A DNA stretch of 50,865 nt from Escherichia phage vB_EcoS_swan01. A program made the translations under genes and the position numbers. Under the pieces are notes generated by a model that saw only the letters and a program-made list of their open reading frames with translations, did not search any database and was not told the DNA's origin. How positions within the stretch are numbered: position 1 is the stretch's first letter; the number at the start of each line of letters is the position of its first letter. Positions 5,386 through 50,006 of the stretch are shown in pieces. Location of the stretch: the sequence record NC_048202.1; one strand, 5' to 3'.

Positions 5386-6441
5386 TTATAGATACTGCCT
5401 GAATTGAGCGCGTACCCAATCAGGAGTATCAAGATCAATTTCCGGTTGCCCGTTTGCATACGAAGGCCATTCGTCTAACTGCTGGCAAACGTTGAACTTG
5501 TTGATCACGCTCATGTACTGGATTCGCCCGATCTTCAATTGCTCAATATTCATTCGGAAAGCAAGCGGCAAGTAAGGCTCTTTCTTCTCCTGCGCAAGCA
5601 ATCTTACAATTACTGGCCTTTCCTCGTCTGGATACGCCTTTTTGAATAAGTCATGTTGCAAAGCCATTTTAAGATAATAGCCGTGATTGTAAGCCAGGCG
5701 CTGGAAGTCAACCGGATTTGCGCTAACCGTTGTTTTGTAGTCAGTGATAATCACCGCTTCTGGATAGGTTACTTCTTCATAAATCGGCCTGCCTTTTTCG
5801 TCGTAACCGTTAATGATTGTTGCCTTTACATCCTTGTTTACGTCAACGTGATCAAGACGCACTTTTACTTTTACGCCGTTGATGATCCCAAATATTGACA
5901 TTTCACGCTGCGCGGTTGGGCTGTTCATGCAAGCGTTATGCTCCGGTATGGCCTCAAGTACGCGCCGCATCGCTACACAGGCATCATAATCTTTAGCGTC
6001 TATTAACTGCACTCCGTCCGCTGCGGCCTGGCATTCTGCCATCATTTCGATAAGCCACCACACATTGAGATCCTCGCCGCACTTGTACAGCATTTCCAGT
6101 AATTCAGGGTATTGTTTACCCGTTGTACCTTTCAGGCCAAAAGATTTCAGCTTTGATGCTAACGCCGTTTGACTAGTGATCAGGTCTTTAAAATCATCCT
6201 GCGACGGTGCGCGGCGATATGTTTTTTCGAATAGCTCCTTGCTTTCAAAGTTGGTATGCGACTGCGTACCGAAAACAAGTGCTTTAGTTTCCTGGCGCGG
6301 CTTGTACTTCCAGTACGCCGGGCAAGTGCTGTAAATCTCAGCTAGGCTGGAACCGCTGACATATTCAGCCGTCCACGCGTTAGGATCATGATAAAGCTCG
6401 TTGCTCATTTCTTCGCTAGTGTAGGCGTTAAAATCACTCAT
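5386..6441 (-). CDS. recombination exonuclease (PD-(D/E)XK-type)
   Basis: 351-aa ORF with D...DYK nuclease-like motif (VIITDYKTT); first gene of the leftward recombination operon. Confidence 0.55.
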   Translation of the reverse strand: MSDFNAYTSEEMSNELYHDPNAWTAEYVSGSSLAEIYSTCPAYWKYKPRQETKALVFGTQSHTNFESKELFEKTYRRAPSQDDFKDLITSQTALASKLKSFGLKGTTGKQYPELLEMLYKCGEDLNVWWLIEMMAECQAAADGVQLIDAKDYDACVAMRRVLEAIPEHNACMNSPTAQREMSIFGIINGVKVKVRLDHVDVNKDVKATIINGYDEKGRPIYEEVTYPEAVIITDYKTTVSANPVDFQRLAYNHGYYLKMALQHDLFKKAYPDEERPVIVRLLAQEKKEPYLPLAFRMNIEQLKIGRIQYMSVINKFNVCQQLDEWPSYANGQPEIDLDTPDWVRAQFRQYL

Positions 6442-38993: not shown

Positions 38994-39101
38994 GGCTATT
39001 TATTTTCAAAAATGCCTGGATGGTAGCGGTTGCAAATGACCATTACGGCGGCGACGGAAAAAGAGCACGACGCCATTCATATTTCAATTGAGGATATTTA
39101 A

Positions 39102-39329
39102 ATGAAAGCAAAAGTTTTAAACATTATGTCAACTATTGACGCTCATCACCGCGTGGCTGTAAAACTTGATAAGTCTTGTGGAATTAGCCAAATCACTATC
39201 ACCGAGGGCAAAGGCGGCTATCTTATCGGTATCCATCCAGGCGGTAAGGTGCGCAAATACAATAAAGATCAGTTAAAAGAATTACTGGAAGAAAACGCTT
39301 TCTATATTCAAAGTTGGCGTGCTCTTTAA
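39102..39329 (+). CDS. hypothetical protein
   Basis: 75 aa, followed by a terminator. Confidence 0.5.
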   Translation: MKAKVLNIMSTIDAHHRVAVKLDKSCGISQITITEGKGGYLIGIHPGGKVRKYNKDQLKELLEENAFYIQSWRAL

Positions 39330-39334
39330 TTAAT

Positions 39335-39358
39335 ATGGCGGCGTTTTGCCGCCTTTTA
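39335..39358 (+). terminator. rho-independent terminator
   Basis: ggcggcg-tttt-gccgcc hairpin plus T-run. Confidence 0.65.
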
Positions 39359-39370
39359 AATGAGGTGGAA

Positions 39371-39487
39371 ATGATAGATAAGGCTATTGATTTCTTTTTT
39401 TATTCGATTATTGGCGCGGTTGGCTTTTTGGTTACTGCTGCTGGCCTGGCTATTATATTGGCTGTTATTAAGGGGATTATGCGATGA
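39371..39487 (+). CDS. small hydrophobic protein (38 aa, below the ORF-track cutoff)
   Basis: ATG with GAGGTGG RBS; predicted single transmembrane helix; stop overlaps the next ATG (ATGA). Confidence 0.45.
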   Translation: MIDKAIDFFFYSIIGAVGFLVTAAGLAIILAVIKGIMR

Positions 39488-39708
39488 GTCAAGACGGATT
39501 TTTTGAGCGCCTTCAAATGGCAGAAGATGCCGGACTAAATAAAGAGGCGGCGCTTGAAGTGGCATATAAAATTAAGAGTCTTGATGAGGCTTTAGGTGAT
39601 ATGGATATGGATCTTGAATCAAGCGCAATATTTGCAGATCCCACTATGATTGTTAATGATTGTGGATGCGATTTCGATCCTGGTTGTCCGCGCTGTTTTC
39701 CGTTTTGA
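39484..39708 (+). CDS. hypothetical protein
   Basis: 74 aa, acidic, C-terminal CGCDFDPGCPRC. Confidence 0.5.
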   Translation: MSQDGFFERLQMAEDAGLNKEAALEVAYKIKSLDEALGDMDMDLESSAIFADPTMIVNDCGCDFDPGCPRCFPF

Positions 39709-39718
39709 GGTAATGACG

Positions 39719-40429
39719 ATGTATAAAGGTTTAATATTCTCCCTATTTGATGGATCTGGTAAAGCAGTTAAAGATTGGGCTGATAATGGCTATAAGTGCA
39801 TTTGCTTTAATGCTGACGGCGGCGATCACGGTGATTACCAGTCAGTGCGCATACAGCATGAGAATATCGAATACGTTAACGTCTGGATTGATGATGCTTT
39901 TTATGTTAAGGCAATCAATAATGAGTGGGGCAATCCTGATTTTATTATGGCGTTCCCTCCTTGCACCGACCTTGCAAATAGCGGATCTCGCCATTGGGCC
40001 AAAAAACGCCTTGAGAATCCATCGTTCCAGGATGAGGCCGCCGACACTTGCAGAATCGCGGCTGATATAGCTGATTATTTCGGTGTTCCTTACATGATCG
40101 AAAATCCGGTTGGCAAGTTGTCAACGTTATGGCGTAAGCCTGATTATACGTTCCATCCGTGCGATTACGCTGGCTATCTGCCGGAAGATGATAAACATCC
40201 CGACTTCCCTGATATTATTCCGGCGCGTGATCGCTATTTTAAGAAAACGTGCCTCTGGACTGGCAACGGCTTTGTTATTCCTCCGCGCGCTTTAATCCTG
40301 CCGAAAGAGGAAGACAAAGATAATCCAGGCTGGGCCAAAACTGGCGGCAAGTCATCGCGCACAAAGATGATCCGCTCCCTCACTCCGCGCGGATTTGCTC
40401 GCGCCGTCTTTGAGTCAAACTCAAAATAG
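39719..40429 (+). CDS. DNA (cytosine-5) methyltransferase-like protein (putative)
   Basis: motif I-like LFDGSG, motif IV-like FPPCTD...SG and motif VI-like ENPVG in the canonical order; start could also be ATG 39713. Confidence 0.45.
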   Translation: MYKGLIFSLFDGSGKAVKDWADNGYKCICFNADGGDHGDYQSVRIQHENIEYVNVWIDDAFYVKAINNEWGNPDFIMAFPPCTDLANSGSRHWAKKRLENPSFQDEAADTCRIAADIADYFGVPYMIENPVGKLSTLWRKPDYTFHPCDYAGYLPEDDKHPDFPDIIPARDRYFKKTCLWTGNGFVIPPRALILPKEEDKDNPGWAKTGGKSSRTKMIRSLTPRGFARAVFESNSK

Positions 40430-40469
40430 CACTTTTTGTTAAAAGCCAGGTGTAAAAACCTGGCATAAT
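40424..40469 (+). promoter_or_regulatory. motif promoter-like element (AAATAGCACTTTTTGTTAAAA, 22 nt, CATAAT)
   Basis: TAG stop of the upstream gene lies at motif positions 4-6; inverted repeat in the spacer; leader CATCGAACAAACAAAGGAG. Confidence 0.6.
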
Positions 40470-40498
40470 CACATCGAACAAACAAAGGAGATCTGATC

Positions 40499-40885
40499 AT
40501 GAATGTTATCTGTAATGAAACCAACGTATTGATGAAAGGCCGTTTTAAAACGGTTTATCAGAAGATTGCAGGAAGTGATGATGTGATCGAGGTGGAAGAG
40601 TTCCAGGTTAAGACGCTTGTTAAGGGTAGCCGCTGGCTTCCAGCAAACCGAGATGATTACCGCGCCATTAACACAAAAACCGTTCTTTGCACGTTTGTAG
40701 ATCATAACATGCCGTGCAAAAAGCACTTTAAGCAGGGCAAGCGATACCAGATCGAGAAAGGGCGACCGCTTGGAAGCGTTGCGGGTTATGTTTTTGATGA
40801 GTGCGGCGACCGCTGGAACCTGTACCGTGAAGAGGTCGGATTCTCTGCTGGCGGCTGTTATCTGTTTGAGGGCAAATATCTGTGA
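40499..40885 (+). CDS. hypothetical protein
   Basis: 128 aa. Confidence 0.5.
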   Translation: MNVICNETNVLMKGRFKTVYQKIAGSDDVIEVEEFQVKTLVKGSRWLPANRDDYRAINTKTVLCTFVDHNMPCKKHFKQGKRYQIEKGRPLGSVAGYVFDECGDRWNLYREEVGFSAGGCYLFEGKYL

Positions 40886-41103
40886 TAAACAGTGAAAACC
40901 GTTACAAAGTAACGCATTCTACCACAAAGACTTTCAAGCCTGGCGATATAGTCAGGCCCATCAAAAAAACTGCGGTAGGTTGGCTGATTGGTTTTTCATA
41001 TCATAAGGCGCTTTACTTTACGTTTAAGGATGGGATTACAGGAGAATGCTACAGCGACCGCCAGCCTGATCGACTTCTGGTTGCAATAGAGCGGATCAAA
41101 TAG
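40882..41103 (+). CDS. small protein (possible member of the small paralog family)
   Basis: 73 aa; TFKPGDIV motif resembles MFKPGEIY of 34227..34448. Confidence 0.5.
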   Translation: MINSENRYKVTHSTTKTFKPGDIVRPIKKTAVGWLIGFSYHKALYFTFKDGITGECYSDRQPDRLLVAIERIK

Positions 41104-41143
41104 CACTTTTTGACAAAACGGGGTAGTATTGGGACGTTAAAAT
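41098..41143 (+). promoter_or_regulatory. motif promoter-like element (AAATAGCACTTTTTGACAAAA, 22 nt, TAAAAT)
   Basis: variant with TTGACA in place of TTGTTA; TAG stop embedded; precedes the 526-aa P-loop protein gene. Confidence 0.55.
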
Positions 41144-41171
41144 TTACGGCCCACAAAGGAGAAGCTAACGA

Positions 41172-42752
41172 ATGTTTTCATTAGAAACGAACAAATTAAC
41201 TCCACAACAAATAATCGCTATGGCTGAAAGCCAGAACCTCTCACCAGTTCGCGTATCAATTCAGGCTAACGGCTATCGCCAGTCGTCCAGCTTTTGGGGC
41301 GACGTAAAGGATGTGAATAGCGGTCACGATCGCTACCCCGTTATTTCTCTTGGTAATGATATTGATGTTGTCGGCAAGTTATCACGCAGCATTGCGCGAT
41401 CCGTTCAATTCCCTGAATCATCGGCTTACATGCACTTTATCGGCTGCATTTCTGCCGCTATGCTTGGACGCTTTACGGTTGACTATCACGGAACCGATCA
41501 GCCGACTGCGCTTTACGTCGTTACAAGCCAGCCGCCGTCAACTGGTAAATCTGCGATCAACAGCATGGCTATTGCTCCGATGATTGCGGAAGTTGAGAAG
41601 ATCAACGAGCAACGCCGCAAGGAAAGAAAGAAAATACAGGCAAAGCTGGCAGGTCTTGCAAAGGAGATGAAAAGCGAAAGATCCGGCGCTGATATGGAAT
41701 CTCTATACCAGGAAAAAGAGGATCTGGAGGAAAAGCTGGAAAAAATGTGTGATATAACTTTTCCTGTTTCAGATACAACTCCAGAAGGCTTGGCGAAAAT
41801 CAACAACAAGCAAGGTAACTTTGCCGTAATATCTGATGAAGCAACAAGTATTAACAGTCTGTTAGGCTTGACCTATGCAAATAGCGAAAGGAAGACTAAC
41901 AGTGAGTTAGTGCTTAAGGCGTGGGATAATGGTCACGTATCAATTGCCCGTGCTAATGCTGACAATAATATGAGTTTTCGCGCGCTTGGATGTATGAGCG
42001 TCATAGCCCAGGATGAAACGATAAGCGGAATCATGGACGCTGGATCGCGAGGCATCGGTGTTAGTGAGCGTTTTTTGTTGGTCCGCGAGGAATCATTCTT
42101 AGGCCGTCGCTCATTCATTGATGAAAATGGTGATTCTACCTATGAGGCGGTGGATTCTGAATTGAAAGCCCAATATTATCAATTGGTGCATAACATCATG
42201 AGCGAATCAAATATATCGCTGAAAATAAGCCGTTCAGCTATGCGAGTGCTCAACATTGCTCGCCAGGATATGGAACCGCATCTTGCAGACGGAGGAAAGT
42301 ATTCTCATACAATGTTACGCGGTGCGCTGGGTAAAATGGATAAACAGGTGATCAGGCTTGCTTCCGTCCTGCATGTTATCCGTAACTGGTTTAATCCTGC
42401 CGGATACCCGCAGAAGTCGAAAGAGATCGACGTGGAAACAATGCAAGAGGCGTTGATCATGTTTCAGGAATTGAGCAAAACATACATTAGCGCCGCCAAT
42501 GCTTCTGGTTATGCTGGTGATGATGCTGAAATGGGTAAATTGATTGAATTGATCACGAGGCACGGCAAGGCTAATAAAGGGATTCTGAATATCCGCGCCC
42601 TGTACGAATCAGCGAGAAAGGTAAAACCTTTCGTTGGTCAGGCTGGCGTAATGAAAAGGATAGAAGGGCACTTACTGCCAATGCTGGAAGAAAGAAATTA
42701 TGTTTGTGTGATTAATGGTGTTATTTTTGTCAATCCAATACTGCTGGGATGA
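41172..42752 (+). CDS. P-loop NTPase, replication-associated (putative)
   Basis: 526 aa; Walker A-like SQPPSTGKSA; no further family assignment possible by eye. Confidence 0.5.
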   Translation: MFSLETNKLTPQQIIAMAESQNLSPVRVSIQANGYRQSSSFWGDVKDVNSGHDRYPVISLGNDIDVVGKLSRSIARSVQFPESSAYMHFIGCISAAMLGRFTVDYHGTDQPTALYVVTSQPPSTGKSAINSMAIAPMIAEVEKINEQRRKERKKIQAKLAGLAKEMKSERSGADMESLYQEKEDLEEKLEKMCDITFPVSDTTPEGLAKINNKQGNFAVISDEATSINSLLGLTYANSERKTNSELVLKAWDNGHVSIARANADNNMSFRALGCMSVIAQDETISGIMDAGSRGIGVSERFLLVREESFLGRRSFIDENGDSTYEAVDSELKAQYYQLVHNIMSESNISLKISRSAMRVLNIARQDMEPHLADGGKYSHTMLRGALGKMDKQVIRLASVLHVIRNWFNPAGYPQKSKEIDVETMQEALIMFQELSKTYISAANASGYAGDDAEMGKLIELITRHGKANKGILNIRALYESARKVKPFVGQAGVMKRIEGHLLPMLEERNYVCVINGVIFVNPILLG

Positions 42753-43144
42753 TTATGTTTTTGCTTGATCTGTATAAATGGTGTGAGTCATACGACTGGT
42801 TTAACAGGCAGCACATAGCCAAATTTATCTATCAGCATAGAGAATGTGAGCGGCTCGCACGGGCCGCCGGACTTACTCCGCGAATGTTCGCCAGCCTTGC
42901 ATCTAAGGAATTTTGCGCAAGAATGATGACGGCTGGCTATATAGATGGGGTATGCGGTAAATACTGGTCCAAAGGATCGTCAAAGCGGCCTTTCGGATTC
43001 GAATTTTATAGCCTGGATGGTATGCGCAACGACTGGATCAGGGATATGGCTAGAATAGTGGAGATGGGCGATGATGAATTGTTCCAGGCAAAAGCTAATA
43101 GACAAGATCTTGAAGCACTGCGCCGTAAATTCAATATCACATGA
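42749..43144 (+). CDS. hypothetical protein
   Basis: 131 aa, ATGA overlap with upstream gene. Confidence 0.5.
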   Translation: MIMFLLDLYKWCESYDWFNRQHIAKFIYQHRECERLARAAGLTPRMFASLASKEFCARMMTAGYIDGVCGKYWSKGSSKRPFGFEFYSLDGMRNDWIRDMARIVEMGDDELFQAKANRQDLEALRRKFNIT

Positions 43145-43265
43145 TGATTTTATTCATGCTTTACTTACGCTACTTTATTCAGATATGCGAGCTTTTAGCA
43201 CCACTGAACATGTTTTATGCAATGATGATGGTGTGTTATTGGTTACAGTAAAGCGTATGGAATAG
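43071..43265 (+). CDS. hypothetical protein (uncertain start, overlaps upstream gene)
   Basis: its TAG stop is embedded in the conserved motif as for other genes, but the ORF overlaps 42749..43144 by 74 nt. Confidence 0.3.
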   Translation: MMNCSRQKLIDKILKHCAVNSISHDDFIHALLTLLYSDMRAFSTTEHVLCNDDGVLLVTVKRME

Positions 43266-43305
43266 CATTTTTTGTTAAAACTCCCGACCTTGTGTCGGGT
43301 ATATT
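43260..43305 (+). promoter_or_regulatory. motif promoter-like element (GAATAGCATTTTTTGTTAAAA, 22 nt, TATATT)
   Basis: hairpin cccgac-cttgtg-tcggg in the spacer; leader CATCGAAACGAACC. Confidence 0.55.
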
Positions 43306-43342
43306 TGTTTCATCGAAACGAACCAACCAAAAAGGAAAAATT

Positions 43343-43567
43343 ATGTACAGCAAGTTTTTAGTAGTTCGCGTATACAATCATGCAAATGGATCTTCTTCTG
43401 AAATCCCGACAGTTTACGATAAGGATTCAGGCTGGAGTGAGCAATCGGCGGTTGAAAATGAGCGCAAGATTGCAGAAATGTACGGCGACACTTGCAGCAT
43501 TGAAGTAAGGCAGTACGACGAATCGAACAAGCCAACAAACGAAACTCATATGTGGCCCGACGCATAA
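43343..43567 (+). CDS. hypothetical protein
   Basis: start at MYSKFLV with AAAAAGGAAA RBS. Confidence 0.5.
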   Translation: MYSKFLVVRVYNHANGSSSEIPTVYDKDSGWSEQSAVENERKIAEMYGDTCSIEVRQYDESNKPTNETHMWPDA

Positions 43568-43570
43568 AAA

Positions 43571-43598
43571 TAAAGGAGGCATTAAGCCTCCTTTTTCT
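43571..43598. terminator. bidirectional rho-independent terminator
   Basis: aggaggc-attaa-gcctcct hairpin plus T-run; overlaps the 3' end of the spanin gene. Confidence 0.6.
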
Positions 43599-43974
43599 TT
43601 TCTCTCCAGTAAAGACAAATCAGCACAATTAACACAACCACGCATATGATTACCGGATCGTACCATCTGCCGTTATTACCCTGCACGACATGAATTTTGT
43701 CTGCCTTGATGGTATTGGCCTGAATGGTTGATGTTGTGAAATCCTTCTTGCTGGACGTGTCCACCTTGTCAACCGCAGATTCCTTTATTGTGGTTTCCTG
43801 TTTTGTGCTGGCGTCCTGCTTTGCTGTAATGCCAACTGTCTGCTTCACGTTCTCCGCTCCAGCCTGTGCTGTGATTTCCGGCTTACTGCCGATTAATCCG
43901 GTCAGTGGCGTAACGCTTGAACATCCAGACAAGATCACCGCCATTGCGATTGGTGTAAGTAAAAAATTCTTCAT
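43582..43974 (-). CDS. unimolecular spanin (lipoprotein with C-terminal transmembrane anchor)
   Basis: N-terminal lipoprotein signal [18 protein letters not shown] and C-terminal TM helix VIICVVVLIVLICLYW, the architecture of T1 gp11-type u-spanins; immediately after the endolysin gene. Confidence 0.6.
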   Translation of the reverse strand: MKNFLLTPIAMAVILSGCSSVTPLTGLIGSKPEITAQAGAENVKQTVGITAKQDASTKQETTIKESAVDKVDTSSKKDFTTSTIQANTIKADKIHVVQGNNGRWYDPVIICVVVLIVLICLYWREKKKEA

Positions 43975-44465
43975 CATTTCAGATCCATTGTGCAATATTT
44001 GTATTCGACCTTGCGCCTGTTAAGTAATCCTTTAGACTTCTCGCGCTTTCCTGTTTTTGGGTTATGGTAATAAGTCCAACGATAAAGCTGATCGCAAGCC
44101 TCGTTTAATTTCCCCTGGTTGATGAGTTTCAGCATTGTTGAATTTCTGAAAGCCCCCACACCTGCATTGTAAGTGAATGAGTACATTGCTGCACGCATAC
44201 TATCAGGAATATCAACCTTAACTTTCTTGTCAACTTCCTTTTTAGCAACCTGGATATGCTTAGCCAACAAAGCATCACACTCTTTTTTAGTGTACGTTTT
44301 CCCCAGGATAACATCTGGTCCGGTGATTCCTGCGCAAACCGTCCATACTCCAGCAATATCTTTGTATGGCTTGTATCTTACCCCTTCGATCTCTTCAAGA
44401 AGTGGAGAAGTCAAGGCAACCGCAACGCCAAAGGCCGCAGCCGCTACCCTGTTCTTTATGCTCAT
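43974..44465 (-). CDS. SAR endolysin (GH24 lysozyme)
   Basis: N-terminal signal-anchor-release segment [17 protein letters not shown] followed by T4-lysozyme-like catalytic region ([22 protein letters not shown]). Confidence 0.8.
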
Positions 44466-44680
44466 TACTTGCCCCTGATTTCAATAGCTTTTTGAATATC
44501 ACCTTTTTCGATCGCTTCGTGGAATTTTTTACTATCACGCCAGCGAAGGTAAGCGCCCCATGCACCGAATGCAGCCATTAAAACAAAGCTGGCAATAGCA
44601 ATGGTTAACTGCCCTGTAGCGGCGCTTGCGATAGATGAACCGCCAGATCCAGCGGTAGCTGCGTTAATAAAATCTTTCAT
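44465..44680 (-). CDS. holin (pinholin-like)
   Basis: 71 aa, two hydrophobic helices and charged C-terminus; precedes a SAR endolysin. Confidence 0.6.
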
Positions 44681-44703
44681 TTTTATTCTCCATATTAATT
44701 AAA

Positions 44704-44717
44704 GTCAATATATTGAC
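44704..44717. promoter_or_regulatory. perfect 14-bp palindrome GTCAATATATTGAC upstream of the holin gene (operator-like)
   Basis: exact inverted repeat about 25-40 nt upstream of the holin start. Confidence 0.4.
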
Positions 44718-44825
44718 CGAATGATAAACGTACATGGTAAAAAATTAAACAAAAAAAAGAGGCGACAAACGCCGCCCCTTTGCAAGTTTTTGATTTAATT
44801 TGTCATTGATTTAAATAAAAATTCA

Positions 44826-45941
44826 TCAATTCATCATTTCTGGATAGTGAACAAATCGCCCAACCTCTCCATGCTCTTTGTCGTAAATGATAACCGCCGC
44901 ACGGCGTCGAGATCTCCAGCCACCTCGCGCGGCGTATGCGTCTTTTGCCGCCAGGGTGCTATGCACCTCAACGATGCCAAGCGACGTTTCTGTCACGGTC
45001 TGGTGATGCCAGTGCCCTACGTGCGCATACATCGTTTTTGAGTTTCCGAAGTCCTCCCGCCAATCTGACGCGCACATCATTAGCAAAGTCTCCGGTTTAC
45101 GCACTGTGTGCCCGTGATGGTACGCAAGGAAAGTTTTTCCGTATTGCGTGTGGTGCACAACGCGAGGTGAAACATCAACGTAAACGCGCGGCTCGTTTTC
45201 ATATGCTGCCGCCATTGCTGCGCGCAGCCAAATCATTCCTGATTGGTCATGATTGCCCTCTACGATCTGGACTTCAACATGTTTATGCTTTAACAACATT
45301 TTATTGATTGCGCGTCGCATTGCACGGATGGCAACGTAAACCAATTTTGCATATCGACTATCTTGATCCAGTACGTGACCGCTTGCAGGTGTAACCGCCT
45401 CCAGGCCGTCGCTATGCAGCATATCGCCACCAATCAGGATGACAGCCTTTTCGCTATCCGGTGCGCACATTAAAGCATAGTCGATAAAGTTATTCATAAC
45501 GCGCTCTGCCGTGGCAGTATCCCAATTTTCGCCGCATTCGTGCTTATGGGCCATAGCTCCTAAGTGCATGTCAAAGATCGGATACAAGGAAAGCGTTTCG
45601 TTATAGTCGCGCTCCTGTAATGGAACCGGATCTAATCGCGGCACTTCCTCGCTAAATGCCTCCATTGCTGCGAGCATTAATGCTTCTAATTGCTCTTTAT
45701 CCTTGCTGGTTTTAGTCCACTTTAGGATTATGTTGCCTTCTTTGTCAGTCATTACTGACTCACCATGAACTCCAAAACCAGGCGCTCCAATGGTGGATAC
45801 CTGGCCTTGCTTTGCAAGTCGCGCCGCGCGACGCTCGACGCTTCTCACATTCATTCCGTACTCTTGAGCGATCTGTTTATATGTCTTACCCGCCGCCCGT
45901 TCGATCTTGAATTGCTCATCTGTAATTTTTACATTTTTCAT
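44826..45941 (-). CDS. calcineurin-like metallophosphatase with N-terminal HTH-like domain
   Basis: GDMLHSD and GNHD metallophosphoesterase motifs; N-terminal TYKQIAQEYGMNVRSVERR helix-turn-helix-like segment; start at MKNVKIT with AGGTGG RBS. Confidence 0.6.
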   Translation of the reverse strand: MKNVKITDEQFKIERAAGKTYKQIAQEYGMNVRSVERRAARLAKQGQVSTIGAPGFGVHGESVMTDKEGNIILKWTKTSKDKEQLEALMLAAMEAFSEEVPRLDPVPLQERDYNETLSLYPIFDMHLGAMAHKHECGENWDTATAERVMNNFIDYALMCAPDSEKAVILIGGDMLHSDGLEAVTPASGHVLDQDSRYAKLVYVAIRAMRRAINKMLLKHKHVEVQIVEGNHDQSGMIWLRAAMAAAYENEPRVYVDVSPRVVHHTQYGKTFLAYHHGHTVRKPETLLMMCASDWREDFGNSKTMYAHVGHWHHQTVTETSLGIVEVHSTLAAKDAYAARGGWRSRRRAAVIIYDKEHGEVGRFVHYPEMMN

Positions 45942-46035
45942 TCTGCCACCTATCTCATCACTATATGGTACATAACTGTAACAGCGATGATAACGGGTAA
46001 CGGTAGAACAAACAAGCGCCACATGATAACTATCC

Positions 46036-46278
46036 TCATTTATAATATTTGCGAGGCTCTCGGATTTTAGCCATTGCCTCTTTGAAATCAATTTTTGTTG
46101 GAACTGCTGGAACTCTTACCATTTTTCGCGGCCTTTCCTTGAGGAAAGTCATCTTATCGCCGCTAATTATGCTCACATCTGCAATATCAAAGTATTGCGC
46201 GATCTTCTTTATATCGTCGGCTATTCCGCATTCTTTAGCGTGATTCCATACCGCCTCTCTACCTTGCTCAACCTTCAT
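46036..46278 (-). CDS. hypothetical protein
   Basis: start at MKVEQGREAV inside track ORF 46036..46299. Confidence 0.45.
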   Translation of the reverse strand: MKVEQGREAVWNHAKECGIADDIKKIAQYFDIADVSIISGDKMTFLKERPRKMVRVPAVPTKIDFKEAMAKIREPRKYYK

Positions 46279-46453
46279 GCTTATAATATGCCTCAGCAAA
46301 TTCTAATGGGTAGTGACCATATGCAACGCGAAGTAGAATCATTGCAGCGCCCCAATCAAGCTGCATATTGTTTTTCGTTCCACCTTTTACCGCATCGCGT
46401 GCTGTTTGTTGCGCCTGGTCAAATGCTTTCTTGCTGTATACTACCATTTTCAT
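46268..46453 (-). CDS. hypothetical protein
   Basis: 61 aa; leader CATCGAAACGAACGTGAGGAAATGAAA from the motif promoter. Confidence 0.5.
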   Translation of the reverse strand: MKMVVYSKKAFDQAQQTARDAVKGGTKNNMQLDWGAAMILLRVAYGHYPLEFAEAYYKHEG

Positions 46454-46479
46454 TTCCTCACGTTCGTTTCGATGAAATA

Positions 46480-46525
46480 ATTATGCCCGACAAAATGCCG
46501 GGCGTTTTAACAAAAAGTGCTATTA
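46480..46525 (-). promoter_or_regulatory. motif promoter-like element (AATAGCACTTTTTGTTAAAA, 22 nt, CATAAT)
   Basis: follows the stop of 46523..46780; inverted repeat in the spacer; conserved leader. Confidence 0.6.
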
Positions 46526-46780
46526 GTGGATCATTCCGTTCTGAAAATTCCACGAATCGACAAACTCTTGCATGTCATTTCTTATTTGTTCGTGCCATTT
46601 TTCAAGAGGTAGTTTTCTTGTATCCTCAAAGCTCATATCTAATGCGCTTGAAAATTCCCACGGATCGCAATCAATCATCTTTTTCACGTTAGGGTTTTTA
46701 TCAAGTGCATCGCACACCATAGCGCGAAATAACAACCACTCGCCAGTTTCATTTAAATAAACGCTTCTCTCTTTTTTCAT
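46523..46780 (-). CDS. hypothetical protein
   Basis: 85 aa. Confidence 0.5.
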   Translation of the reverse strand: MKKERSVYLNETGEWLLFRAMVCDALDKNPNVKKMIDCDPWEFSSALDMSFEDTRKLPLEKWHEQIRNDMQEFVDSWNFQNGMIH

Positions 46781-46784
46781 CGTG

Positions 46785-47510
46785 TTAGCTCCGTTTGCGC
46801 GCGCGGCGTTCGGTTACAGAAGGGCAAATATCGCTGATCTTAACGTATCGCGTTTTCTGCTCTTCGCCTTCTTTAAGTTTACGCATGACAAAAATCACGC
46901 TCCCCTTATTGTTGCCCTGTACAGGCTCGCCAGTCAATCCAGACACAAAGGCGATTCTTCCGGTGCGGGAATATTCCACTCCCCCCTCTTCGTAAACCTC
47001 GCCAGTGATCCAGATGATTTCAGCCGCGTTTTTCTGCGCCTCATAAAACCATGCTGTAGAGTTGTCGGATGGCAACAAAACATCAATTTGGTTGTTGTGC
47101 TCCATTTGCTCAATTGCTTTCTTGATAAATGGAGTTGGGTTGCTGTACGGCGGGTTAAGCCATACGTGCTTGTTGCTACCCCACCAACGCTTTAAGCAGT
47201 TTGTTTCCTTGCTATAGAACTTCTCGCAAACTGCGTTTTCATGGCTTGCTGCCGCGTCGAGATCGTATTCACCAAATTCTGATTCCATCCACTCCACGAT
47301 CTCTTGAGGCGTGCTCCACATATCGCGCACAACGTCCGGCGTAGTGCTTCCAGCGTATCGGTTGCCGCTTACCTTATAATATTGATTTGGCTTTACTGCC
47401 TGGTAATGGCCTCCAGTTGCAAGGGCATTCCCTATAAATGTTTCTCTCTCCAACTGCTCAAAGCTAACGAATGCGTCATGGGTGTCTTTATCTAAAATAT
47501 CTTTAGCCAT
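46785..47510 (-). CDS. DNA N6-adenine methyltransferase (phage Dam-type)
   Basis: DLDAAAS and NPPY motifs in the order typical of phage Dam-family MTases; 241 aa. Confidence 0.7.
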   Translation of the reverse strand: MAKDILDKDTHDAFVSFEQLERETFIGNALATGGHYQAVKPNQYYKVSGNRYAGSTTPDVVRDMWSTPQEIVEWMESEFGEYDLDAAASHENAVCEKFYSKETNCLKRWWGSNKHVWLNPPYSNPTPFIKKAIEQMEHNNQIDVLLPSDNSTAWFYEAQKNAAEIIWITGEVYEEGGVEYSRTGRIAFVSGLTGEPVQGNNKGSVIFVMRKLKEGEEQKTRYVKISDICPSVTERRARKRS

Positions 47511-47549
47511 TTCATTTCTCCGCTATTAAAAGCTATCTCGTGTTATTGA

Positions 47550-47595
47550 ATTATGGCGCAATCCATCGCGCCAGTTTTAACAAAAAGTGCTATTT
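47550..47595 (-). promoter_or_regulatory. motif promoter-like element (AAATAGCACTTTTTGTTAAAA, 22 nt, CATAAT)
   Basis: TAG stop of the VRR-NUC gene embedded in the motif; drives the Dam gene. Confidence 0.6.
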
Positions 47596-48009
47596 AAGCA
47601 TGTATTCAATAGCTAACTTAAACTGATTAAATCCGTAGGCGACCGCAGCGAATCCTCCTAAACTGCGAACGCGACGCAAAAAAGCCTTTTGTTCATCGCT
47701 GACTGGTGATGCTTTCCCCTTGCCTGATTTATTAACTCGTTTGATCTCAATCGCTGCAAAGGGGTATTTTCCGTTTGAACCAATCAGGATGATGAAATCG
47801 CTTACCCCCTTAACCAAGCCGGACTGCTGATCAATCATCGCCGTTACTTTCGACTTCTCATTCTCGTTTACCGTATGCCACGCTAGCAAATAAGGATGAG
47901 CATAAGTCAACCACTGAAAGCTATCTATCTGGTGATTAACTTCCTTTCTCGTGTCGGTTGGATCTCTTTCGTAAAACTCAAGATAATCTCCTTTATCAGT
48001 TATAGCCAT
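47590..48009 (-). CDS. VRR-NUC domain nuclease (putative)
   Basis: 139 aa; D...E.K motif (DFIIL...AIEIK) characteristic of PD-(D/E)XK VRR-NUC domains; follows the helicase gene. Confidence 0.55.
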   Translation of the reverse strand: MAITDKGDYLEFYERDPTDTRKEVNHQIDSFQWLTYAHPYLLAWHTVNENEKSKVTAMIDQQSGLVKGVSDFIILIGSNGKYPFAAIEIKRVNKSGKGKASPVSDEQKAFLRRVRSLGGFAAVAYGFNQFKLAIEYMLK

Positions 48010-50006
48010 TAAACAAACTCCCGTTTTGCAATGTTATCCTCACCTTTGCCGTTTTTGCGATGCGTTACGCGTACAGGCGGCATGATGTGATGAGCGTATG
48101 ACATTATTTTACGAGCATTTCTATAGCTCGCCACCATACCAGCAATCTTGCGATCCGGTATGTGCTGCAATGCTATTTTTCTCCATATCGTCCGGCAAAT
48201 GTTGCTTTCTGACTCAGGGAAAAATCTTTCGTATGCCTTGAACGTGTCGCCGTTGGCCTCAAGCTCATAGCAAAAAATAATTCCTTTCTGGTTTTTCGTC
48301 ATATCAACGCGGAAAGATTTAACGTTGCACCAATCGTTTTTGGTGTAGTGCTTACCGCTTAACTTCTCGTTAGGATCGACAAGAGAAATATCGCAACAAC
48401 GGCATACTCTCGCCACTACGTCGTTTTTTGTTCCGCAACCGCGCTTGATTATCTTTTTCGTTCTCTGATCTACCTGGTCCTCGCAAATTCTGTAAGTCCA
48501 AAAATGCTCACATCGCTTCCCGTTATCGTCTACGTGCATACATCGGCGAGCGTAAAAGCTGTTTAGCGTTCCACATATCGGACAAGTCTTAGGCTCTTTC
48601 CCGTTTGTAAATCTCTTTTGGAATTGCGCTTGCTCAAGGATTGGATCGAAATACAAATCACCTAACTCATCCATAGTACCTGCAAAATCCAATACAAGAT
48701 GATCTTTTTTCTTGAATCCCTGCTCAATGTGCCATTGCTTAAGCAGTCGCATGCCGCGCCCCAAAAGCTGGATAAGCAATGTTAGAGATCCTATCTTTCT
48801 CAGTATTACAGAAGTATCCCAAAACGGAACGTTAACGCCAGTGGTAAGCGCCTGTACCTGGAAGATGTATTTTACTTTTCCCTCGTATGCCTCCCTCAGC
48901 CACTCTTTACGCTGATTATCTCCAGTCTTGCCAGTTATGATCCTGTATTCAACGCCTGGCGGCAGTGCGGCGGCAGCCTCCTTGCAGTGCCTTTCCCCTG
49001 CGCATGTAACTAAAACTCCGTTCCTGTCTTTGCATATCTCATGGACTTTAGCCATGATTTTCTGTGTCATTGTTGCGTCTTGATGGATCTTTTCTTCCAT
49101 CTTGCGCAATGTTTTAGCGTCAAAGTCTGAAACGCCATCCTCGCTACTGGCTTCGAACTCTGAAAGGTCATAACCCAGGTCGCCTACGTCGCCGAAGTTT
49201 GTTGGCACTACCGAACCGAATTTGATTAAGTAGTTTGTGTCTATGTTAGTCACCTGCTCACGCCAGAATCCATTTTTGTTCTTATCTTCAACCAGTATTG
49301 GAACCACGCCGCGAAACTCAGATCCAGTCATGCCGAATATTCGCAATTCGTGCCCGTATGCCTCGCGACACCTACGCATCATTTCCATGATTATTACGGT
49401 GTACTGTGTGCGCCCTGTTCCGAACATTGGATCGCCATTGGAATCAAATTGCTGTTCTTCTCCAATCAGTACAGGCAAATCCTTCTTAGTGGTCATCTGC
49501 TGGTAAGATTCATTATTTTCTATCGCGTCCGCGAGATCCTCCCAATCCACCTGGTGACATTCATCAATACCGATAACGTGCGGAACATAATCACCTAACG
49601 ACTTAAACAATCCGTTTACTACAGTGCCCTCAGAACCGACTACGATCGGAAAGTATGCGCTTTTTGTTTTCAGTCCGGCGCAATAGATTGAGTTTGGCAC
49701 GCCAAGATTGCTGATCTCTTCCGAATCCTGATCAACAATTTCAGCCTGGCGAGCAAGGACCATCATTTTCAATCCCATTTTGCGGCATTGCGCCGCAACC
49801 ATCGCAAACATCAATGTTTTGCCAGCCGATACAGAAGCCTTAACAAAGAAAGGATGCTCATAGTTTTTCATGCGCTTTGCGATCTCTGCATACGCAACGC
49901 ACTGATAAGGATAAGGCACTATATTGCCAACCGTGAATCGCTCTTGGATGCTTTTTATTACTGCCTCGCCTAATGCTGATATTTGTTTTTCGATATTTGG
50001 AATCAT
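48009..50006 (-). CDS. SF2 DNA helicase (DEAD/DEAH-like) with C-terminal Cys-rich domain
   Basis: Walker A VSAGKT, DECH box, and multiple CxxC pairs in the C-terminus. Confidence 0.8.
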   Translation of the reverse strand: MIPNIEKQISALGEAVIKSIQERFTVGNIVPYPYQCVAYAEIAKRMKNYEHPFFVKASVSAGKTLMFAMVAAQCRKMGLKMMVLARQAEIVDQDSEEISNLGVPNSIYCAGLKTKSAYFPIVVGSEGTVVNGLFKSLGDYVPHVIGIDECHQVDWEDLADAIENNESYQQMTTKKDLPVLIGEEQQFDSNGDPMFGTGRTQYTVIIMEMMRRCREAYGHELRIFGMTGSEFRGVVPILVEDKNKNGFWREQVTNIDTNYLIKFGSVVPTNFGDVGDLGYDLSEFEASSEDGVSDFDAKTLRKMEEKIHQDATMTQKIMAKVHEICKDRNGVLVTCAGERHCKEAAAALPPGVEYRIITGKTGDNQRKEWLREAYEGKVKYIFQVQALTTGVNVPFWDTSVILRKIGSLTLLIQLLGRGMRLLKQWHIEQGFKKKDHLVLDFAGTMDELGDLYFDPILEQAQFQKRFTNGKEPKTCPICGTLNSFYARRCMHVDDNGKRCEHFWTYRICEDQVDQRTKKIIKRGCGTKNDVVARVCRCCDISLVDPNEKLSGKHYTKNDWCNVKSFRVDMTKNQKGIIFCYELEANGDTFKAYERFFPESESNICRTIWRKIALQHIPDRKIAGMVASYRNARKIMSYAHHIMPPVRVTHRKNGKGEDNIAKREFV

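Follow-up and report, generated by a model that had tools for sequence, protein, structure and literature searches.

Two orphan methyltransferases for probable self-methylation of phage DNA, Dam and a compact Dcm-like enzyme, and a separate VRR-NUC nuclease in the T1-like coliphage vB_EcoS_swan01

Several BASEL phages carry a short gene annotated as ‘Dcm-like C5 cytosine methyltransferase’, and a close relative has been studied in phage K42, the genome of which shares 95.4% identity with that of the BASEL phage KarlJaspers (Bas06). K42 phages that escaped the retron Ec86 had all lost or silenced this 711-bp dcm gene, the expression of which was toxic only when the retron was present (Wang et al., bioRxiv, 10.1101/2023.08.16.553469). 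Using liquid chromatography coupled to mass spectrometry (LC-MS) against a 5-methylcytosine (5mC) standard, the same study found that the K42 enzyme raises 5mC in the multicopy single-stranded DNA (msDNA) of the retron, that a C82A/E128A/K175A/K176A mutant gives no such rise, and that changing the CCTGG sequence in the msDNA stem abolishes Ec86 defence; the reference that PMC12640716 gives for it is Cell Rep 2024;43:114857. A further described relative comes from Pantoea phage vB_PagS_AAS23, the DNA of which resists both EcoRII and MboI, read by its authors as Dcm plus Dam methylation; BLASTP found no conserved domain in the AAS23 protein, and HHpred matched it to cytosine methyltransferases (PMC8004638). 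Here, we compare with these systems a locus of Escherichia phage vB_EcoS_swan01 (sequence record NC_048202.1), of which the whole stretch of DNA analysed, 50,865 nucleotides, is called the window. Across its region 39000-48100 (9.1 kb), it matches two Escherichia phages, vB-Eco-KMB46 and tonn, at 99.2-99.3% identity, the latter classified as Drexlerviridae, Tempevirinae, Warwickvirus, and the window is therefore essentially the whole genome of a T1-like (Drexlerviridae, Warwickvirus) coliphage of 50.9 kb. We consider it likely that this phage methylates its own DNA by means of two independent orphan methyltransferases, Dam and a short Dcm-like enzyme, with a VRR-NUC nuclease standing apart from both. 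The three genes are as follows:

39719..40429, plus strand: compact Dcm-like DNA C5-cytosine methyltransferase gene (711 bp, 236 residues), identified by its motifs and by PHROG 757.
46785..47510, minus strand: phage Dam-type DNA N6-adenine methyltransferase gene (241 residues), identified by PF05869, TIGR01712, PADLOC and its motifs.
47590..48009, minus strand: VRR-NUC (PD-(D/E)xK) nuclease gene (139 residues), identified by PF08774.

What was computed in this work is the identity of each gene, the folds and catalytic residues of the proteins, the synteny, and how site frequency goes with gene content. The short protein shares 212 of its 236 residues (90%, without gaps) with the KarlJaspers protein bas06_0055; the 24 substitutions fall mostly within residues 23-72, and C82, E128, K175 and K176 are kept, so that all four residues mutated in the K42 study are present in the window protein. 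The copy of the gene in FritzSarasin (Bas04) is 98.9% identical at the DNA level, and gp52 of AAS23 (locus L044 in our set) shares 61% identity with the window enzyme. The short enzyme is thus a member of an already known phage family, which has been both described and experimentally characterised as the trigger of retron Ec86/Eco1. A preliminary description of this DNA, made from its letters only, had singled the gene out as the most novel-looking of the three and had called its chemistry uncertain; with the BASEL annotation and the retron work at hand, this label gives way to that of a Drexlerviridae Dcm-like C5 methyltransferase. The formation of 5mC, the triggering of the retron and the resistance to EcoRII and MboI all come from papers on close homologues. 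By analogy with the 90%-identical Bas06 enzyme, itself a close relative of that of K42, the window enzyme would be expected to form 5mC.

The motifs of the short protein stand in the order that the preliminary description had given them, with LFDGSG at residues 9-14, FPPCTDLANSG at 79-89 (the Pro-Cys pair being 81-82) and ENPVG at 128-132; only the length of 237 residues had to be corrected by one. The Pfam search proposed there for both methyltransferases matched Dam to PF05869 and the short protein to no Pfam family. Indeed, the short enzyme lies outside the standard profiles altogether: scans of Pfam, NCBIfam and PADLOC returned no match for it (for PF00145, none at E up to 0.1), and its family is invisible to these libraries despite its presence in about 1500 sequenced phages. 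Among 60 relatives, 11 gave sub-threshold matches to PF00145 (best E 0.0039). The only profile match among the libraries scanned was to PHROG 757, ‘DNA methyltransferase’ (E 4e-85). The family is very large: clustering at 90% identity leaves more than 3000 clusters, a 50% threshold gives 1195 representatives, and 1524 phage records span Drexlerviridae, Dhillonvirus, Vequintavirus-like, T4-like and Klebsiella phages; given the number of homologue clusters and the PHROG match, the motifs are not due to chance. In a diverse alignment of 60 members, C82, E128, P130 and W180 are invariant, and FPPCT, ENP, WRKPD, RDAYxKKTxLW and IRSxTPRGF are strongly kept. P80, T83 and N129 are conserved in at least 90% of these sequences; in other words, a Thr after the Pro-Cys pair is the norm in this family. 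The motif I loop LFDGSG aligns to motif I of DNMT3B and M.HaeIII, although the family consensus is SLFDxxG and only L9 in it reaches 90% conservation, and the Pro-Cys pair aligns with the PC of the same two enzymes. A sequence search of the PDB gave marginal matches to M.HaeIII (E 0.04) and DNMT3B (E 0.6), both over motifs I-IV.

The short protein has a class I S-adenosylmethionine (SAM)-methyltransferase fold with C5-methyltransferase architecture, and the structures that match it best are those of bona fide DNA methyltransferases, the closest being DNMT3A and DNMT3B. By fold and motifs, it belongs to the DNA C5-cytosine methyltransferase superfamily, outside the current PF00145 profile. A fold of this kind could in principle serve another reaction, such as the transfer of a carboxymethyl or other group or DNMT2-like methylation of tRNA, or could be that of an inactive DNA-binding protein, and both the PF00145 results and the Thr in place of Gln after the Pro-Cys pair would be in line with this. 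It was this Thr that had led the preliminary description to doubt the chemistry, a doubt that is hard to sustain for a residue shared by at least 90% of the 60 sequences, in a region where DNMT3A and DNMT3B themselves have PCN, and for an enzyme with a 90%-identical relative reported to make 5mC. With LC-MS showing a rise in 5mC for the K42 enzyme but none for its catalytic mutant, Cys82 and Glu128 invariant across the 60 diverse homologues, the best structural matches being true DNA methyltransferases and the DNA of AAS23 resisting EcoRII, we give a different reaction almost no credence.

The start codon of the short gene deserves comment, as members of this family are often annotated either as ‘hypothetical’ or with a start codon placed too early. 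The RefSeq version of the gene in tonn (gp40) begins at an ATG equivalent to position 39656, which yields 257 residues and an overlap with the upstream open reading frame (ORF) at 39484-39708. A possible ribosome-binding signal was read from the sequence further downstream:

39707..39710, plus strand: GAGG Shine-Dalgarno-like sequence, 8 nt upstream of the ATG at 39719.

The stop codon that ends the upstream ORF (39706-39708) shares bases with this GAGG. A start at 39719 gives the same 711-bp length as the K42 and Bas06 genes, in a family of which most members measure 227-238 residues; the other in-frame ATG, at 39713, lies too near the GAGG. Judged from the sequence, the 711-bp form appears to be a better fit than the RefSeq start, both to the family lengths and to the gene that was studied.

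The Dam-type gene stands as the preliminary description had it, on the minus strand, and with it the claim of two methyltransferases of different classes, N6-adenine and C5-cytosine. Its product scores 207 bits against PF05869 (cut-off 28.1, E 2e-61), 180 bits against TIGR01712 (cut-off 97.05, E 2.5e-53) and E 1e-103 against the PADLOC orphan methyltransferase model, while a PDB sequence search with it returned nothing useful. The motifs DLDAAAS (residues 83-89) and NPPY (119-122) are kept in the Dam proteins of both KarlJaspers (84% identity) and T1 (ST20, 66% identity), and by these matches the window Dam is a classical T1-type enzyme. T1 Dam is specific for GATC. Taking this together with the lack of GATC avoidance described below, the target of the window Dam is most likely GATC as well.

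To relate gene content to site frequency, we used 21 T1-like loci, consisting of 19 loci from IMG/VR anchored on the DUF3987 helicase, the window and T1, and scored the Dcm-like and Dam genes in each by tblastn. In a separate search for loci related to the short enzyme, the alignment used was one of 8 sequences. The Dcm-like gene was found in 12 loci (the window, L007-L013, L017, L019, L020 and L025), in which the ratio of observed CCWGG sites to those expected from mononucleotide frequencies was 1.36-2.53, versus 0.00-1.28 in the 9 loci without the gene. The separation is complete (Mann-Whitney p 7e-5, or 1.3e-4 when normalised with a Markov model, over the 21 loci), although each class comprises only about five lineages, not independent of one another by phylogeny. 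For GATC, the observed/expected ratio was 1.25-1.64 with Dam versus 0.18-0.44 without it, the sole exception being L025, in which the apparent absence of Dam is due to truncation of the locus; relative to the Markov expectation, the values were 0.78-1.07 in the Dam-positive and 0.15-0.36 in the Dam-negative T1-like loci. In a scan of 101 palindromic 4- to 6-mers that favoured no motif in advance, the top motif was CCWGG for the Dcm-like gene (observed/expected, pooled, 1.11 with it versus 0.48 without it) and GATC for Dam (0.93 versus 0.23). These site frequencies are as expected if the Dcm-like enzyme protects CCWGG and Dam protects GATC. As a separate observation, the second motif in the scan for the Dcm-like gene was CCATGG, the NcoI site, which all 12 gene-positive loci lack (pooled ratio 0.00, versus 0.56 in the gene-negative loci).

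The absence of the Dcm-like gene from the 20-kb loci was checked on the whole genomes of T1, Rtp, IME347 and DS8. Whole-genome values, each given as the range from the Markov-normalised to the mononucleotide-normalised ratio, were as follows:

T1, whole genome: Dam present, Dcm-like gene absent; CCWGG 0.83-1.17, GATC 0.78-1.26.
Rtp, whole genome: Dam absent, Dcm-like gene absent; CCWGG 0.78-1.22, GATC 0.35-0.41.
IME347, whole genome: Dam present, Dcm-like gene absent; CCWGG 0.04-0.06 (4 sites versus 72-96 expected), GATC 0.87-1.46.
DS8, whole genome: Dam absent, Dcm-like gene absent; CCWGG 0.21-0.30, GATC 0.22-0.27.
JMPW1, whole genome: Dam present, Dcm-like gene present; CCWGG 0.98-1.38, GATC 0.80-1.28.

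The most likely target of the short enzyme is CCWGG, which is the top discriminating motif in the scan, is the site suggested by the EcoRII resistance of AAS23, and matches the need for CCTGG in the msDNA. We also considered an active C5-methyltransferase with another site, either broader (CCNGG, or a short or degenerate sequence) or preferentially in single-stranded or hairpin DNA. In favour of such a site, the enzyme resembles neither E. coli Dcm nor the target-recognition domain of Dcm, only about 85 residues separate its ENP (128-130) from the C-terminal RSLTPRGF motif, and more distant family members occur in the CCWGG-poor contigs L069, L097 and L099. However, it is CCWGG, rather than CCNGG or CCSGG, that best separates the T1-like phages with and without the gene, and neither the resistance of AAS23 DNA to EcoRII nor the loss of Ec86 defence upon mutation of CCTGG is easily reconciled with a different site, which we therefore regard as unlikely.

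Several points weigh against the view that the two enzymes protect CCWGG and GATC sites of the phage. T1 and Rtp lack the Dcm-like gene and yet are only mildly depleted in CCWGG (Markov ratio about 0.8), and absence of the gene therefore does not force strong avoidance of the site. Since similarity to E. coli Dcm is undetectable, the specificity of the short enzyme cannot be derived from the sequence by homology. The E. coli strain MG1655 is dcm+. In the K42 study, this host gave little 5mC in msDNA and the phage enzyme gave much (10.1101/2023.08.16.553469), so the phage enzyme may differ from the host Dcm in its site, in the form of its substrate or in amount. That study, moreover, assumed CCWGG from the name ‘Dcm’, an assumption backed by the loss of defence when CCTGG was mutated. 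The resistance of AAS23 DNA may stem from Dam or Dcm supplied by its host, in the BASEL study methyltransferase genes were not linked in any simple way to resistance against the restriction systems tested, and our literature searches found no direct methylome of a member of the Drexlerviridae.

Site usage also varied among more distant carriers of the family. In L069, L097 and L099, with members showing 46-55% identity over the best aligned segments, observed versus expected CCWGG counts were 1/16.7, 3/13.8 and 0/16.2, and the short methyltransferase family may not have one common specificity. A group of contigs of about 50% GC content (L047, L050, L051, L066, L067, L084, L086, L088 and L096) carries the Dcm-like gene and has 3-5 GATC sites per 12-21 kb versus 48-81 expected; these phages appear to combine cytosine self-methylation with extreme avoidance of GATC.

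The window has 310 GATC sites, 133 CCWGG sites and a total of CCNGG sites at expectation, but only 3 sites of the CCSGG type (CCCGG/CCGGG), versus 22 expected from the Markov model or 56 from mononucleotide frequencies, and versus 65 in T1. The remaining sites lie at 6318, 35573 and 46498, the last of them inside a terminator-like hairpin (46485-46503). Scarcity of CCSGG recurs in several lineages with the Dcm-like gene, not in all: many gene-positive phages have normal CCSGG (L009, L010, L029 and L045-L064), so we rejected CCSGG depletion as a general result of carrying the gene and take it to be lineage-specific. These same normal counts argue against the broader CCNGG site considered above, under which the scarcity could alternatively be read as loss of CmCGG, which is sensitive to McrA. 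With CCWGG as the target, the scarcity fits selection by CCNGG-cutting enzymes on the half of the sites that CCWGG methylation cannot protect. This raises the tentative idea, to which we assign less than even chances, that T1-like phages switch between purging CCWGG or CCNGG sites, as in IME347 and L016 (the latter with 1 CCWGG and 0 CCSGG sites), and carrying a minimal methyltransferase of 236 residues, with the window lineage combining both: its CCWGG sites would be kept and self-methylated, and the unprotectable CCSGG sites almost removed. If this were true, the window phage would be immune to CCNGG enzymes of the SsoII/Ecl18kI type, which are common in enterobacteria, and no known sequence-specific C5 methyltransferase would be smaller than this short family, whose recognition region, some 85 residues long and without relation to the Dcm one, would read a site of 5 bp.

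Two further observations on site content stand on their own. IME347 (L107, NC_047960) presents the mirror image of the window pattern, its 4 CCWGG sites being accompanied by 168 CCSGG sites (1.3-1.8 times the expectation); it was isolated on BL21(DE3), which is a dcm- strain. In the window, AAGCTT, AGGCCT, GATATC, GGATCC, GGCGCC, CAGCTG, CCGCGG, GCCGGC, CGGCCG and CACGTG are each absent where 6-17 copies are expected, and TCCGGA occurs once versus 23 expected, which looks like a broad avoidance of restriction sites beside self-methylation.

From these data, we infer target sequences, an anti-restriction role and a catalytic mechanism as follows. Dam would transfer methyl groups from SAM to the N6 position of adenine, most likely in GATC. 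The Dcm-like enzyme would act as a minimal, DNMT3-like C5-cytosine methyltransferase, in which Cys82 is predicted to attack C6 of a flipped-out cytosine, most likely the inner C of CCWGG, with Glu128 as the proton donor to N3 and SAM as the source of the methyl group that C5 receives. Both marks would allow the phage to keep GATC and CCWGG sites that have been purged by relatives without these genes, the CCWGG mark protecting from restriction of the EcoRII or SsoII type and the GATC mark from MboI-type restriction or from MutH, all of them enzymes that cut sites lacking the mark. In enterobacterial phages, both MutH and restriction have been held responsible for selection against GATC. A probable price is exposure to retrons, which can sense such enzymes; a homologous Dcm triggers retron Ec86/Eco1. 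Dam and VRR-NUC are standard T1-like genes. Mild novelty lies only in the comparative evidence from site frequencies that CCWGG is protected and in the purge of CCSGG. The site-frequency contrast offers an inexpensive and testable prediction of the CCWGG target.

The two methyltransferase genes are 6.4 kb apart, in convergent transcription units. On the plus strand, small early genes and the DUF3987 helicase gene form a unit with the Dcm-like gene; on the minus strand, a helicase gene is followed by VRR-NUC, Dam, small ORFs, a metallophosphoesterase gene and then holin, endolysin and spanin genes. The gene order around these genes is the same in T1, KarlJaspers, IME347 and JMPW1. Two further features complete the locus:

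43572..43594, both strands: bidirectional terminator-like hairpin with a 9-bp stem, found by terminator scan as a consensus match only, separating the convergent units.
48009..50006, minus strand: superfamily-2 (ResIII/Helicase_C) ATP-dependent helicase gene, identified by PF04851, PF00271 and PHROG 16.

Within the minus-strand unit, the product of 44826-46091, a ‘DNA repair exonuclease’, matches PHROG 704 (E 2e-148) and, weakly, a Pfam metallophosphatase family. It has an N-terminal helix-turn-helix-like segment with sub-threshold matches to Sigma70_r4_2 and HTH_28, and the listed ORF starts with a TTG well upstream of the annotated start.

The preliminary description had joined Dam, the C5 enzyme and the VRR-NUC protein into one DNA-modification and anti-restriction toolkit. 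The nuclease itself is real, with 41.1 bits against PF08774 (cut-off 23.8, E 2.2e-10) and 70% identity to T1 ST21, although its gene lies just outside the stretch 39719-47510 to which it had been assigned. GVSD (D72) and E87-x-K89 are invariant in 26 VRR-NUC homologues, down to 35% identity, and a PDB sequence search detected no solved relative. A three-part toolkit, for instance one in which the nuclease cuts unmodified host DNA, would draw on the position of VRR-NUC next to Dam on the same strand (80-bp gap), on the persistence of the VRR-NUC-Dam order in T1, KarlJaspers, IME347 and JMPW1, and on the plausible protection of phage DNA by both methyltransferases. However, the helicase stop codon and the VRR-NUC ATG overlap; Rtp, L014, L015 and L024 keep these two genes side by side while having neither methyltransferase gene; in T1, a terminator is annotated between ST21 and dam; and the Dcm-like gene, which lies in the opposite unit, is absent from T1 and IME347, both of which retain Dam and VRR-NUC. 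A functional tie between VRR-NUC and the methyltransferases was rejected on account of the helicase pair in loci with neither of them, and we hold the combined toolkit to be very improbable.

The overlap with the helicase gene, the persistence of the pair and the T1 terminator instead argue that VRR-NUC belongs to a replication/recombination module, coupled to the helicase, rather than to the modification system. Base 48009 is shared by the helicase stop codon and the VRR-NUC ATG, and this 1-nt overlap suggests translational coupling of the two genes. Single-domain VRR-NUC proteins of bacteria and viruses behave as Holliday-junction resolvases, and association with a helicase is typical of the family. 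As a working assignment by analogy, we describe the window protein as a putative Holliday-junction resolvase, that is, a predicted structure-specific nuclease, and it is from this analogy that we infer its substrate.

In comparison with the known systems, the nearest counterparts of the Dcm-like gene are those of KarlJaspers and K42, where the same 711-bp gene occupies the corresponding place in synteny, upstream of the DUF3987 helicase; they belong to the genus Hanrivervirus rather than Warwickvirus, with no functional difference indicated. AAS23 gp52 is of the same family and, again in a Drexlerviridae genome, is accompanied by a Dam gene, but is more divergent and comes from a phage of a different host, for which methylation by the host was not excluded (PMC8004638). 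The window Dam shows no notable difference from T1 Dam or from the PF05869/TIGR01712 family, and its gene occupies the same place as in T1, downstream of the helicase and VRR-NUC genes. VRR-NUC resembles the bacterial and viral nucleases of PF08774 in its domain match above the cut-off, its intact PD-(D/E)xK motif and its single-domain size of about 140 residues. With E. coli Dcm and M.EcoRII, the short enzyme shares the order of catalytic motifs I, IV (PC) and VI (ENx), its ENP falling on the ENV of Dcm in hhalign, and probably the product, C(5mC)WGG; however, Dcm has 472 residues to its 236 and matches PF00145. Orthology to Dcm was rejected (BLASTP E 2.0, hhalign E 0.21), and because there is no significant similarity, ‘Dcm-like’ is a label of function: the phage enzyme is a functional analogue of E. 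coli Dcm, not an orthologue. With DNMT3A and DNMT3B, it has in common a residue other than Gln after the Pro-Cys pair (PCN there, PCT here) and a very small target-recognition region, whereas identity is 16-18%, the phage enzyme falls short of the DNMT3 catalytic domain by about 50 residues and is free of regulatory domains, and the DNMT3 enzymes target CpG and act as oligomers.

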